60,239 nt of DNA, taken from contig JBBQEB010000004.1 of NCBI GenBank assembly GCA_038320275.1, forward strand, positions 1 to 60,239. Direction: 5' to 3'. Below are positions 20,951 to 40,754 of the stretch, piece after piece; the stretch's first letter is position 1; each line of letters starts with the position of its first letter. Origin of the DNA: Myxococcales bacterium. Lineage in GTDB: Bacteria; Myxococcota; Myxococcia; Myxococcales; Anaeromyxobacteraceae. Below the pieces are notes generated by a model, which searched no databases, was not told where the DNA came from, and worked only from the letters and a program-made list of their open reading frames with translations. The position numbers were made by a program, and so were the translations under genes.

Positions 20951-21997
20951 ATGAGCCGAGAGCAGGCTATCCTGTCGCAGCTCGACGCCAGCGCCGCCCG
21001 AGGCCTCCGGCCCGAGAAGGCGCGCGCGGCCCTGCAGGAGGTTCCCACGCTTTCGGCGGAGCTCTCGCTTCTCGAGCAGGAGCTCACTCGCGCCACGGAC
21101 GACGCGGAGGGGACGCTTCGCGCCGCGGCGCGCCACCTGGTCGGCTCGGGCGGGAAGCGCGTGCGGCCCACCGTGACGCTGCTGGCGTGCGGCGCTTGCG
21201 GCGGGGAGCTGGCGGCGGCGGTTCCCTTTGCCTGCGCTGCGGAGCTCACCCACTCTGCGACCCTGCTCCACGACGACGTGATCGATGACGGCGCGATGCG
21301 GCGCGGCCAGCCTGCCTCGCGCGTCCTCTGGGGCAACGCGGTGTCCGTCCTCTCCGGCGATTGGCTCCTCACGCGGGCGCTGGAGATCGTGGCGGGGGAG
21401 CCCGCCCGCTCGGCAGCGCTGCCCGCGCTCCTCGCCACCATGCGGCGGCTGGTGGAGGGCGAGGTGCTGCAGCTCTCGCTGCGCGGCTCCTTCGCCACCA
21501 CCGAGCGGGACTATTTCGACGTGGTCCGCGGCAAGACGGCCTCGCTCTTCGGCTGGAGCGCAGCAGCAGGGGCTTGGTCGGCTGGCCTGCGCGGCCCTAT
21601 CCCCGAAGCGCTGGCGGAGTTTGGCGAGGGCATCGGAATGGCCTTCCAGATCGTGGACGACGCGCTCGACTACGCGGGCGACCCGGCGCTCCTGGGCAAG
21701 CGCCTGGGACAGGACTTCCTGGAGGGCAAGGCGACGCTGCCGCTCATCCGCGCCTTCGGGCGCGAGGTCGAGCTGCGCGAGAAGCTGCAGCGCCTGGTGG
21801 ACGGAGCGGCCGACCCGGCCGAGGTGGCCGAGGACGTCCTTGCCTCGGTGAAGCGCACCGGCGGCATCGAGGCGGCCCGCACCCTCGCCCGCGGCCACAC
21901 CGCCGCAGCCATGAAGGCGCTCGACAAGGTTCCGGACGGTCCCCACCGGCGCGCCATCGAGGAAGCAGCCAGGTCGCTCATCGAGCGGGAGATGTGA
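20951..21997 (+). CDS. Polyprenyl diphosphate synthase (IspB/HepT-like)
   Basis: GGKRVRP, LHDDVIDD, KTA, FQIVDDALD, GKATLP motifs. Confidence 0.93.
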   Translation: MSREQAILSQLDASAARGLRPEKARAALQEVPTLSAELSLLEQELTRATDDAEGTLRAAARHLVGSGGKRVRPTVTLLACGACGGELAAAVPFACAAELTHSATLLHDDVIDDGAMRRGQPASRVLWGNAVSVLSGDWLLTRALEIVAGEPARSAALPALLATMRRLVEGEVLQLSLRGSFATTERDYFDVVRGKTASLFGWSAAAGAWSAGLRGPIPEALAEFGEGIGMAFQIVDDALDYAGDPALLGKRLGQDFLEGKATLPLIRAFGREVELREKLQRLVDGAADPAEVAEDVLASVKRTGGIEAARTLARGHTAAAMKALDKVPDGPHRRAIEEAARSLIEREM

Positions 21998-22178
21998 ACG
22001 GAGGGGTCCCAGCGCAGCTGGGGAGGGCGCAGCCCTCCAGGGCGGGGCGGACGCGCGCAGCGCGCCGCAGGGACCCGCCGAGCGGGAGGGGGCCCCGGTC
22101 CAGCTTTGCTGGCCGGGGGGAGGGCGCAGCCCTCGTCCGACGCCGCAGCCAGGTCGCTCATCGAGCGGGAGATGTGAA
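21965..22178 (+). repeat. Perfect 34-bp direct repeat (21965-21998 and 22145-22178) flanking a hairpin element
   Basis: GCAGCCAGGTCGCTCATCGAGCGGGAGATGTGAA occurs twice, 180 bp apart; it includes the gene's stop codon. Confidence 0.95.
22000..22135 (+). mobile_element. Non-coding multi-hairpin element, copy A (MITE/REP-like)
   Basis: Five hairpins (CCCAGC-GCA-GCTGGG; GAGGGC-GCA-GCCCTC twice; CGCGC-GCA-GCGCG; CCAGC-TTT-GCTGG); homologous to 35158-35291. Confidence 0.65.
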
Positions 22179-27575: not shown

Positions 27576-29453
27576 ATGCCCAAGCTTCGCGCCGCCGCCG
27601 TCTCGTTCCTCAACGCCCGCCCGCTCACCGTCGCGCTGGAGCGCTCCTCCCGCATCGAGCTCGTGCTGGCGGAGCCCTCCGCCTGCGCCGCCATGCTGGA
27701 GCGCGGAGAGGTGGAGGTGGCGCTCCTCCCGGTGGGCGGCCTGGTGGGCAAGGACTACGAGATCGTCCCGGGGGTCGCCATCGGATCGGACGGGCCCGTG
27801 AGCACCGTGCTGCTCGCCGGTGAGCAATCGCCGGCGGTCTGGGACGAGGTCTTCCTCGACACCGCCTCCCGCACCTCGCAGCTCCTCGCCAAGATCGTCC
27901 TCGATGCGCGCGGCGTTCACCCCAGGTTCACGCAGATGCCGGCCGCAGACGGGCTCGCGCTGGCGCGCGGCACCAAGGGCGCGCTCGTCATCGGCGACCG
28001 CGGGTTCGGCGTCTCCGCGAATCAGATCCTCGACCTCGGGCGCGAGTGGACGCAGCTCACCAAGCTCCCCATGGTCTATGCGCTCTGGGCCGCCCGCCCG
28101 GGGGTGATGGCGCCGGAGGACGTGGCGGAGCTCGTCCGCGGGGCGCGCGAGGGCCTCGGGATGCGCACCGAGCTCGCCCAGGCCTTCGCGAGGGAGCGGG
28201 GCGGGGACCCGGAGCGCTACCGCCGCTACCTGACCCACCGCATCCGCTACGGTCTCGGGCCGCACGAGCTCTCCGGGCTGGAGGCTTTCGTGGCAAAGGT
28301 GGCCTCCCTCGGCTTCGGCCCGGAGACGACGCTCAGGTTCGCCGACGACCACGTCCGCCGCTCTCACGTGCGCCGCGCGGTCTCGCTCGACACCGCGCTG
28401 CAGAAGGGCGCGGACGGCGAGCGGCTCGACGCGGACGAGGCGGAGCTCCTGGAGGAGCAGGCGCCGCTGCTCGAGCTGGGGCTCGCCGCCGACGCGCGCA
28501 GGCGGGCGCTCCACCCGGAGGGCGTCGTCACCTACATCGTGTCGCGCAACATGAACTACACCAACGTGTGCACCACCGCGTGCCACTTCTGCGCCTTCTA
28601 CAGGCCGCGCGGGCACGGCGAGGCGTACCTGCTCACCCGCGAGGAGATGGCGAAGAAGATCGAGGACACCATCGCGGTGGGCGGCATCGAGGTGCTGCTG
28701 CAGGGCGGGCTCCATCCCGATCTGGGCATCGAGTGGTACGAGGACCTCTTCCGCTGGGTGAAGTCGAGCTACCCCACCATCAACCTGCACGCCCTCTCGC
28801 CGGAGGAGATCTGGCACATCGCGCGCACCAGCCAGCTCCCGCTCGACACCGCGCTCGACCGGCTCATCGCCTCCGGGCTCGACTCCATCCCGGGCGGCGG
28901 GGCCGAGATCCTCGACGACGACGTCCGCAGGCGGATCGCACCGCTCAAGTGCTCCACCGACGAGTGGCTCGCGGTCATGCGCGCGGCGCACCTGAAGGGC
29001 CTCCGCTCCACTGCCACGCTCATGTTCGGGGTGGGCGAGGAGGGCCACCACCGCGTCGGCCACCTCCTGCGCCTCCGCGAGCTCCAGGACGAGACGAAGG
29101 GATTCACCGCCTTCATCTGCTGGACCTTCCAGCCGGAGAACACCCGCCTCGCCCCGGGCGACAACTCCGCGCACGCTTATCTGCGGGTGAACGCCCTCTC
29201 GCGGCTGGTGCTCGACAACGTCCCCAATTTGCAGGCCTCCTGGGTCACCATGGGCGGCGGCGTCGCGCAGGCGGCGCTGCACATGGGCTGCAACGACTTC
29301 GGCTCGGTCATGCTGGAGGAGAACGTCGTCTCCGCGGCGGGGACCACCTTCCAGATGGACTCGGAGGAGGTGGAGCGGCACATCCGCGACGCCGGGTTCG
29401 TGCCCGCGCGGCGCAACATGCGCTACCAGCTCGTGGCGGGGAAGGCGGCCTGA
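27576..29453 (+). CDS. mqnC: Fused chorismate dehydratase (MqnA) / cyclic dehypoxanthinyl futalosine synthase (MqnC)
   Basis: N-terminal ~255 aa: VSFLNARPL, GPVSTV, SRTS, IGD, DLGREW...LPMVYALW (MqnA). C-terminal part: NYTNVCTTACHFCAF, LQGGLHP, LQASWVT, GCNDFGS.MLEENVV (MqnC). Confidence 0.88.
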   Translation: MPKLRAAAVSFLNARPLTVALERSSRIELVLAEPSACAAMLERGEVEVALLPVGGLVGKDYEIVPGVAIGSDGPVSTVLLAGEQSPAVWDEVFLDTASRTSQLLAKIVLDARGVHPRFTQMPAADGLALARGTKGALVIGDRGFGVSANQILDLGREWTQLTKLPMVYALWAARPGVMAPEDVAELVRGAREGLGMRTELAQAFARERGGDPERYRRYLTHRIRYGLGPHELSGLEAFVAKVASLGFGPETTLRFADDHVRRSHVRRAVSLDTALQKGADGERLDADEAELLEEQAPLLELGLAADARRRALHPEGVVTYIVSRNMNYTNVCTTACHFCAFYRPRGHGEAYLLTREEMAKKIEDTIAVGGIEVLLQGGLHPDLGIEWYEDLFRWVKSSYPTINLHALSPEEIWHIARTSQLPLDTALDRLIASGLDSIPGGGAEILDDDVRRRIAPLKCSTDEWLAVMRAAHLKGLRSTATLMFGVGEEGHHRVGHLLRLRELQDETKGFTAFICWTFQPENTRLAPGDNSAHAYLRVNALSRLVLDNVPNLQASWVTMGGGVAQAALHMGCNDFGSVMLEENVVSAAGTTFQMDSEEVERHIRDAGFVPARRNMRYQLVAGKAA

Positions 29454-34035: not shown

Positions 34036-35142
34036 ATGCTCTCGCCCGAAGTGCTGAGAAAGCTCGACGCCATCGAGGCGCGCTTCGAGGAGCTCACCGC
34101 ACAGCTCTCCGATCCGGCCGTGGTGTCGAACGGCGACCGCTTCCGCAGGGCAGCCAAGGAGCGGGCCGGGATCGAGCGGACGGTGGAGGCGCTGCGAGCC
34201 TGGCGCAGGCTCTCCCGGGACGTCGCCGAGAACGAGGCGATGCTCGAGGACGCGGAGATGCGCGAGCTCGCGAAGGATGAGCTGGCGGCGCTGCGCCCGC
34301 GGCTCGCCCCGGCCGAGGACGACCTGAAGCTCCTGCTCGTGCCGCGCGATCCCAACGACGAGAAGGACATCATCCTGGAGGTCCGGGCCGGGGCAGGGGG
34401 CGACGAGGCCGGCCTCTTCGCCGCGGAGGTGCTGCGGCTGTACCTTCGCTACGCCGAGCGGAGGGGATGGAAGTTCGAGATCGCCGACACCTCCCCGGGC
34501 GCGCTGGGCGGGGTGAAGGACGTGACTGTCACCATCTCCGGCGAGGCGGTCTACTCCTCGCTCAAGTACGAGTCGGGCGTCCACCGCGTGCAGCGCGTGC
34601 CGGCCACCGAGGCGCAGGGGCGCATCCACACCTCCACCGTCACCGTGGCGGTGATGCCGGAGGCGGAGGACATCGACGTCCAGATCAACCCGGCCGATCT
34701 GGAGATGGACGTCTTTCGCTCCACCGGCTCGGGCGGACAGTCCGTGAACACCACCGACTCGGCGGTGCGGCTCACCCACAAGCCGACCGGCGTCATCGTG
34801 AAGTGCCAGCAGGAGAAGAGTCAGCTCAAGAACCGCAACATGGCGATGAAGATGCTGCGGGCAAAGCTCTTCGAGATGGAGCTGGAGAAGCAGCAGAGCG
34901 CGCGCGACGCCGCGCGGAAGAGCCAGGTCGGCTCGGGGGATCGCTCGGAAAAGATCCGGACCTACAACTTTCCGCAGGACCGGCTCACCGATCACCGCAT
35001 CAACTACACGCGCCACAACCTTCCCGCGGTGATGGACGGGGACATCCAGGACCTCGTCGACGCCTGCCGCACCCACTACGCCGCCGAGGCGCTCCGCGAG
35101 GCCTCCCGCGACGAGGGCGGCCGGGTCGAGAGGCGCCCGTGA
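34036..35142 (+). CDS. prfA: Peptide chain release factor 1
   Basis: [15 protein letters not shown] (PxT), [15 protein letters not shown]. Confidence 0.97.
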
Positions 35143-35157
35143 GCAGGCCACAGGCCA

Positions 35158-35378
35158 GGAGGGGTCCCAGCGAGGCTGGGGAGGGCGGAGCCCTCCCGGC
35201 AGGGACAGCGAACGCAGTGAGCGTGGGCCCCTGCGAGCAGGAGTGGGGCCCCGGTCCAGCTCTGCTGGCCGGGGCGAGGGCGCAGCCCTCGCCTGAAGCC
35301 GAGACGCCCCTGAGCAGCCCACGAGCCAGGTGGGGTCCCGGTCTAGCTTTGCTGGCCGGGGCGAGGGCGCAGCCCGCG
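35158..35378 (+). mobile_element. Non-coding multi-hairpin element, copy B (35158-35291) plus an extra right module (35332-35378)
   Basis: Left module is 36/39 identical to 22000-22038; the 47-bp right module occurs at 35245-35291 and 35332-35378 and matches 22089-22135. Confidence 0.65.
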
Positions 35379-35398
35379 TATGAAACAGAGAAGCGGGC

Positions 35399-40678: not shown

Positions 40679-40754
40679 GCGGGAATAGCTCAGTTGGTAG
40701 AGCATCAGCTTCCCAAGCTGAGGGTCGCCGGTTCGAATCCGGTTTCCCGCTCCA
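40679..40754 (+). tRNA. tRNA-Gly (CCC)
   Basis: 76-nt cloverleaf GCGGGAA...TTCCCGCTCCA; anticodon arm TCAGC-TTCCCAA-GCTGA; GTTCGAATC T-loop; encoded CCA. Confidence 0.97.

Follow-up and report, generated by a model that had tools for sequence, protein, structure and literature searches.

An intergenic mobile repeat of the Anaeromyxobacteraceae with two mirror-repeat modules predicted to form purine-motif DNA triplexes

Two copies of an elaborate hairpin-forming sequence lie between genes on one contig (C4) of a 4.1-Mb, 72% GC, 91% complete Myxococcales assembly, and they raise the questions of what kind of element this is, whether its structure is selected as DNA or as RNA, and how it moves. 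The stretch analysed, called the window here, is the 60,239-nucleotide contig JBBQEB010000004.1. Our analysis of these copies, A and B, confirms the detail of the original prediction. The left modules (22000-22038 and 35158-35196) differ at three of 39 positions, each within a hairpin loop; the right module is present at 22089 and 35245 and, in a more degenerate version, at 35332; and the outer stem of the central arm is maintained between A and B through compensatory change, with a tandem G.A pair in the arm of copy B. That description was correct but incomplete, in that it missed an exact 34-bp direct repeat flanking copy A, which sits 3' of the stop codon of a polyprenyl synthetase gene, and a layer of mirror repeats superimposed on the hairpins. 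This mirror-repeat (putative triplex) layer is the element's most distinctive feature. The features of the two copies, all on the forward strand, are as follows:

21965-21998 (+): target repeat 1, last codons and stop of the polyprenyl synthetase gene (PF00348); exact 34-bp repeat
22000-22136 (+): copy A, full element, 137 bases; covariance model match of 94.5 bits
21999-22038 (+): copy A 5' module, read from the sequence; putative G-rich third strand (21999-22006) and hairpins P1 and P2
22041-22079 (+): copy A central arm P3, variable in length and branching across the family
22084-22136 (+): copy A 3' module; putative third strand (22084-22092), P4 (T-Y-Y loop), purine tract (22115-22124), P5 (GCA loop) and G-T foot
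22137-22144 (+): copy A tail, between the element and the duplicated target
22145-22178 (+): target repeat 2, exact 34-bp duplicate of 21965-21998
35158-35292 (+): copy B, full element, 135 bases, between the release factor 1 gene and prmC; 128.1 bits
35240-35292 (+): copy B 3' module, a mirror repeat in the A*A-T state
35301-35330 (+): imperfect second copy, recognized by eye, of about 30 bases upstream of copy B (35128-35159, with the release factor stop)
35329-35379 (+): third, decayed copy, 3' module only

The duplicate at 35301-35330, being a by-eye reading, is outside the flank-repeat test given below. Neither terminator-like nor promoter-like sites were found at copy A or copy B. Among the matches listed from the contigs of one DNA sample, possibly the source, no joint skips copy A or copy B and no piece spans copy A. 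The original prediction recognized no named family, and Rfam agrees: its only hit in the window was a tRNA (the gene is at 40679-40751), with no match to the element, and seven further loci had no match at E values up to 1.

Copies A and B are members of a family of intergenic repeats of about 135 bp. The element had been described as present twice, and a search for more copies in the genome and in other Myxococcota had been proposed; with an iterated profile, 34 matches are found at 32 loci of this genome, 5'-truncated copies among them, and none when the genome is reversed. Covariance model matches are present in 54 of 92 Anaeromyxobacteraceae genomes, where per-genome copy numbers are lower bounds (36 candidates were scored per genome), and three genera are nearly without the element (0 of 14, 0 of 3 and 2 of 13 genomes matching). 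Outside the family, four of 140 genomes in a sample of the phylum match, weakly, often in tandem and sharing the 3' module only; the distant Myxococcota loci L233-L236, L246 and L247, tandem arrays in which the 3' module is joined to a different upstream part, are probably sister families. The 3' module is the part kept in every subfamily, and in metagenomes (at least 81 copies) it is likewise kept while the part upstream varies freely. A scan of a genome collection gave seven loci, from two Anaeromyxobacteraceae bins, and plasmid and phage records gave one and four weak partial matches, respectively. With genes called by a purpose-built codon model, three of 85 copies overlap a called gene and the others are intergenic, and the genes that flank them are unrelated housekeeping genes. 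The repeat is undescribed in the papers found (subscription papers and ISfinder were outside the search), and Anaeromyxobacter is absent from the main texts of PMC2267715 and PMC4666352; the supplementary genome tables of the latter may list these motifs.

The proposed covariance test shows that the hairpins covary. When the alignment is made without fitting it to the structure, both partners vary in 19 of 42 pairs (shuffles give 10.8); with a structure-fitted alignment, which leans towards the model, the figure is 35 of 41. Single copies are more stable than chance (z of -2.7 to -4.1 folded as DNA and -2.0 to -3.2 as RNA), and their minimum-energy folds differ from the five-hairpin drawing. 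The five-hairpin element had been described as having GNA-triloop stems. Four of the hairpins have loops of the G-N-A type, and the fourth has instead a T-Y-Y loop (79 of 85 non-redundant copies); among the same 85 the P5 loop is GCA in 82, and a G-N-A loop caps P1 in 68 and P2 in 48. Stem cells are 95% Watson-Crick, and among 3380 cells G.A (58) outnumbers G.T (42). (Thirteen or 14 near-identical copies in genome G043 were omitted from the loop and stem counts, as from the gene-end, triple, 5'-module and tail counts below.) G-N-A triloops and tandem G.A pairs are DNA features. The original prediction had allowed for selection on either single-stranded DNA or RNA structure; loops, pair types and the mirror symmetry support the DNA half of that statement and not the RNA half.

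Both end modules are mirror repeats as well as sets of hairpin pairs. The 3' module has, ahead of P4, a G-rich strand of nine bases whose reversed sequence matches a purine tract that crosses from the 3' arm of P4 to the 5' arm of P5; in copy B the strand at 35240-35248 mirrors the tract at 35271-35279 at eight of nine positions, in the A*A-T state, and in the 5' module of copy A the tract at 22020-22027 mirrors the third strand at seven of eight. One position of the 3' module changes in concert in all three strands: the third strand, the purine strand and the partner of the latter. Among the 148 of 191 modules that were parsed for triples (the remaining modules were dropped), 22 have A in both the third strand and the purine strand, two have A in the third strand alone, one in the purine strand alone, and 123 in neither. 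Taken separately and in the same order, the counts are 12, 1, 1 and 67 in genomes and 10, 1, 0 and 56 in metagenomes. Such linkage between A*A-T and G*G-C is what a purine-motif DNA triplex needs. Two further 3'-module positions show a linked switch in two of three cases each, and canonical purine-motif triples make up 95% in register as compared to 73-79% when the strands are slid. The interior of P4, which lies between the linked sites, varies independently of the A state (p = 0.82 and 0.32). In the 5' module the G tract is interrupted by an A*A in 86 of 108 copies and by a T*A in 20, and its G runs are of equal length in 92 of 108, lengths which are partly tied by the stem. The mirror layout is seen by eye in five of six distant copies. 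On a tree of the central arm, which has few informative columns, the A*A state is dispersed, with 20 changes of which at least 13 are forced, and this may reflect swapping of modules from one or a few origins rather than many independent changes of a whole triple.

From these patterns we infer that in each module the G-rich strand follows the purine face of two stacked hairpins, giving a purine-motif DNA triplex. H-DNA in supercoiled duplex fits the mirror covariation equally well. A G-quadruplex reading is disfavoured because the linked A substitutions interrupt the G runs. According to parts of Holder et al. (PMC4666352), RNA does not form purine-motif triplexes, such triplexes can arrest polymerases, and the motif studied there folded as a triplex in vitro and was not detected in vivo. 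Taken together, the element is real and mobile and is probably a folded single-stranded DNA element with two triplex modules, and the family gives evidence from natural sequence for selection on a purine-motif triple helix in a bacterial chromosome.

Our verdict, based on sequence comparison, is that the element is a new and more complex relative of the BoxC/PIT triplex repeats, with a predicted fold. Like BoxC, PIT and TM_ECO as portrayed in sections of Holder et al. (2015, PMC4666352), it is short, GC-rich, intergenic, multicopy and patchy among relatives, with mirror G tracts interrupted by A, a purine-motif triplex (predicted here), unstable flanks and no known mobilising enzyme. TM_ECO is, in the same sections, one class II triplex of about 36 bases on a single hairpin, and its pattern (class II order) matches none of the 34 copies and nothing else in the genome. 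In the present element, on the other hand, the third strand is 5' (class I order), the predicted duplex is split over two stacked hairpins, and two triplex modules surround a variable arm, with three-way covariation and evidence from filled and empty sites. This two-module layout, with the duplex split over stacked hairpins, is new.

Other known repeats are less similar. REP, BIME and REPIN sequences and their TnpA(REP) enzymes, as outlined in portions of PMC8266576, share with the element hairpins near stop codons, intergenic location, tandem arrays and a single-strand substrate; unlike them it has no GTAG foot, is four times longer and has no cognate gene flanked by copies. GTAG or CTAC occurs anywhere in only three of 34 copies, and the true GTAG REP-RAYT loci of the relatives use other repeats: at L064 (genome G006) and L066 (G020) canonical RAYT genes are flanked by GTAG-type REP arrays unrelated to the element. 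Non-autonomous elements of the IS91/Helitron type resemble it in having one fixed and one variable end, flank capture and tandem copies, but no Y2 partner was found, two IS91 target words occur in only four and three of 85 tails, and the element deletes or duplicates its target. The MITEs ERIC, RUP and Correia are like it in size, gene-end location and bursts, whereas its core lacks both a terminal inverted repeat (in 20 full copies 3-8 of the 12 end bases match as an inverted repeat) and a short target duplication. Finally, the DGR target hairpin (parts of PMC3240598) and the non-coding hairpins of single-stranded DNA phages are also GC-rich DNA stems just behind a stop, with a loop that begins with G and ends with A; these differ in being single hairpins that serve a virus or retroelement in cis, and the DGR loop has the four-base form GRNA.

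Does the element move? It had been predicted to be small, non-autonomous and mobile, and comparison of related genomes upholds this. The sites orthologous to copies A and B are empty in five of five and eight of eight congeners, respectively; the release factor 1-prmC spacers of congeners, element-empty, hold other hairpin or G/C-tract repeats (L261, L263, L264). Between genomes G017 and G041 seven of eight alignable loci differ and one is shared, with flank identity of 86-99% (11 loci were tried, two of which fell outside the windows and one did not align). Empty alleles could be deletions rather than pre-insertion sites, and one of the seven differing loci, which retains both element ends in its otherwise empty allele, is probably a deletion. 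In the others the 3' junction is at, in or a few codons from the stop codon of the facing gene, and on the 5' side 10-60 bases of native spacer have been replaced. At two loci the facing stop is altered (TAG to TGA or TAA); filled and empty alleles have different stop codons, and in this way the element rewrites gene ends.

Of the two ends, the 3' one is fixed, and joining at the 5' one deletes or duplicates target DNA. A stop or start codon is found no more than 10 bases from the 3' end in 48 of 84 copies and from the 5' end in nine of 84. In the tails of 155 copies T is found at +1 in 84%, A at +5 in 69% and A or T at +6 in 83%, where intergenic DNA is 28% A+T. Because the same consensus holds in 57 copies far from gene ends, the sequence preference is primary, and stop codons are sites that satisfy it. 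A local duplication beginning no more than 45 bases past the 3' end accompanies 15 of 124 copies, some of which belong to the same arrays, as compared to three of 1000 control sites; exact duplications of 34 bp and 78 bp surround copy A and a copy on contig C49. Most copies have no duplication, and a short target duplication (at least five bases) was seen in none of 20 copies (control 10.5%).

At some sites the same position is filled by copies with different central arms, beside a DUF2795 gene (L124, L157, L439), where they form tandem arrays, and behind an ompA-like gene (L025, L126, L133, L243), which we read as either recurrent insertion or in-place replacement. Genome G043 has undergone a burst of near-identical copies, and these are embedded in a longer unit with inverted ends of about 26 bases and an extra terminal hairpin. 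This composite of about 240 bp consists of the end motif, the core and a terminal hairpin of about 60 bases whose 3' arm is the inverted end motif. It is seen in G043 (L112, L140-L154, L183-L190), in G020 and G091 and at L078-L084, and inverted ends of this kind are found only in the composite; L187, L189 and L190 are shorter forms without the core. The G043 composite junctions mostly read as a TA duplication at CTAG, which is typical of IS630-type MITEs.

The folding strand serves as lagging-strand template in 70 of 101 copies from five closed genomes (107 matches minus six tandem neighbours; related genomes share copies), a figure that is uncorrected for gene orientation and takes the terminus to be opposite dnaA, a search for dif having found nothing. 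One of the five is without the bias (12 of 20). The folding strand is also co-oriented with the upstream gene in 61 of 84 copies.

How, then, does the repeat spread? The explanation we favour, while putting it at somewhat short of an even chance, is that the element is a selfish mobile DNA repeat without genes that operates as a folded single strand, copied from its 3' module on the exposed lagging-strand template and joined by host enzymes. When the G-rich strand is exposed as lagging-strand template, the modules would fold into purine-motif intrastrand triplexes and hairpins capped by G-N-A loops. The 3' module would mark the point at which copying begins or is stalled, namely the G-T foot of its final hairpin, and a copy would be made from there towards the 5' end. 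The 3' end of this copy would be joined first, to another A/T-rich spot, which in a genome of 72% GC is mostly a stop or start codon, and the other end would be repaired imprecisely by host replication or end-joining enzymes, leaving short target deletions, duplications of 30-90 bp or tandem copies. No dedicated transposase would be needed, and Ku-dependent end joining is a candidate helper. The strongly conserved, complex fold speaks against this explanation, as a specific protein that recognises the fold would account for it more readily. An alternative is an HUH enzyme (Y1, Y2 or Rep-like) acting in trans on an origin in the 3' module nicked near the tail, with rolling-circle or peel-and-paste transfer giving the fixed 3' end, variable 5' end and tandem copies. 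IS91/IS200-type chemistry would yield just such a fixed end (here with a tail consensus), tandem arrays, lagging-template bias and DNA-type hairpins, and Y1-like genes are present in 26 of 41 relatives. We nevertheless consider an HUH partner rather unlikely. HUH enzymes, as far as we know, do not normally delete or duplicate the target. Mobilisation by HUH or RAYT enzymes, which had been suggested, is so far unsupported: PF01797 and NF047646 have no match in the 91% complete source assembly, and neither a GTAG foot nor a RAYT gene was found at the copies examined. One Y1-like family is found in 20 of 54 genomes with the element and in 19 of 38 without, and is missing from copy-rich G043 and closed G045; Y2 (PF04986) is in two of 24 family genomes, neither of them copy-rich; and none of 32 Y1/Y2 loci (Y1 alone, 0 of 20) carries the element. 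No transposase adjoins the copies examined, and 674 nearby proteins, when clustered (the 45 largest clusters being assessed by eye), gave only generic families and shared loci and no recurring enzyme.

A SINE-like retroelement would insert a transcript, or a copy resembling msDNA, through target-primed reverse transcription, and this would account for 5' truncation as well as for the long, variable target duplications (34 and 78 bp). The source genome has two reverse transcriptase matches, and a myxobacterial precedent is cited in PMC6868368. This is nonetheless highly doubtful, since RVT_1 is absent from the many-copy genomes G017, G024 (closed), G004 and G016 (99-100% complete), none of 25 reverse transcriptase loci carries the element (copies flanking such genes had been among the things to look for), and loops, pair types and the purine-motif mirror all indicate DNA. 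A domesticated gene-end signal or small RNA (a terminator, mRNA stabiliser or protein binding site) kept by host selection would fit the almost always intergenic position near stop codons and the site behind one ompA-like gene that is filled in G000, G017, G041 and G046; the unrelated housekeeping neighbours, the empty sites in close relatives, and the absence of a terminator- or promoter-like site at the window copies and of an Rfam match make it quite improbable. The covariation itself might be a by-product of template switching between hairpin arms plus slippage in G runs, without structural selection, and the high Watson-Crick fraction with few wobble intermediates is what arm-to-arm copying would give. 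Such copying yields inverted and not mirror symmetry, however, and leaves the fixed loops and the linked third-strand change across an independently varying hairpin unexplained, so this seems very improbable. A more specific possibility, distinctly unlikely in our estimation, is a transposase-free parasite of lagging-strand synthesis, in which the 3' module would be an initiation signal like those of single-stranded DNA viruses, host primase would act at the G-T foot, and a self-primed copy would be inserted by Ku/LigD end joining. Two filled/empty pairs show an inserted strand whose start lies exactly opposite the G-T foot. If this host-only reading were true, a mobile element would spread with host priming and repair enzymes alone, and the mechanism could hold for the whole BoxC/PIT class.

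Ku was tested because the joins look like microhomology repair. Of the 54 genomes with the element 46 have it, and of the 38 that lack the element 16 do; the eight element-bearing genomes without a Ku match are all less than 90% complete, and among genomes at least 90% complete and no more than 5% contaminated the figures are 30 of 30 with the element and seven of 24 without. In genus g6 Ku is found in three of three genomes and the element in none. This co-occurrence depends mainly on two genera that lack both, and was examined after the idea arose, so it is a lead only.

Several other candidate partners were tried. IntI (TIGR02249, E of 1e-40) was found in none of 92 genomes, and the control genomes were equally silent. 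An IS630-type DDE_3 partner was rejected, being above the cut-off in one of five genomes, which was not G043. The same is true of a DUF222-like HNH protein, whose family is present in 83 of 92 genomes, including 33 of the 38 without the repeat, and of whose loci 0 of 30 carry the repeat; the source genome has four copies of this HNH element, on other contigs. In G043 (L152, L180, L181, L182) an element of about 2 kb, with short inverted ends and encoding a 392-amino-acid protein with a weak DUF222 and HNH match, has inserted into the repeat beside hairpin loops, once with an inversion; this protein family has up to 38 matches in one genome, and the 2-kb element looks like an unclassified insertion sequence. 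Where copies form inverted pairs in the source genome, they flank a ribose-phosphate pyrophosphokinase gene and a peptidoglycan-binding protein gene, and not a transposase; the product encoded at L012:671-1537, between two partial copies, is a peptidoglycan-binding protein with three histidine-rich tandem repeats.

We know of no function or way of spreading for the BoxC/PIT triplex repeats in the 30 years since they became known. In the present family, which includes closed genomes, the putative triplex goes together with documented gain and loss of copies, an insertion end that is fixed and a bias in replication strand, and what moves such repeats thereby becomes testable.

There are also some viral resemblances. 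In one microvirus contig the non-coding DNA includes a near copy of the 3' module (L301:265-386), and the best viral match of the model (E of 2.7e-4) is on an anellovirus-type contig (L345), with hairpins in the order of the 5' half. Scans of viral sequences with four element patterns gave 0, 0, 1 and 51 matches, the 51 being mostly poly-G. Microvirus, inovirus and DGR-type contigs (L302-L327) repeatedly contain a simpler motif of tract plus hairpin; it hit 26 viral contigs, and of the 19 checked seven have single-stranded-phage markers and three have DGR-type genes. These resemblances, like the co-occurrence of Ku, are hints towards the host-only reading, and none of them establishes homology. 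Elsewhere in the window, a single reading frame at 27576-29453, inside a futalosine-pathway cluster, joins a PF02621 menaquinone biosynthesis domain to a radical SAM CofH/MqnC domain.
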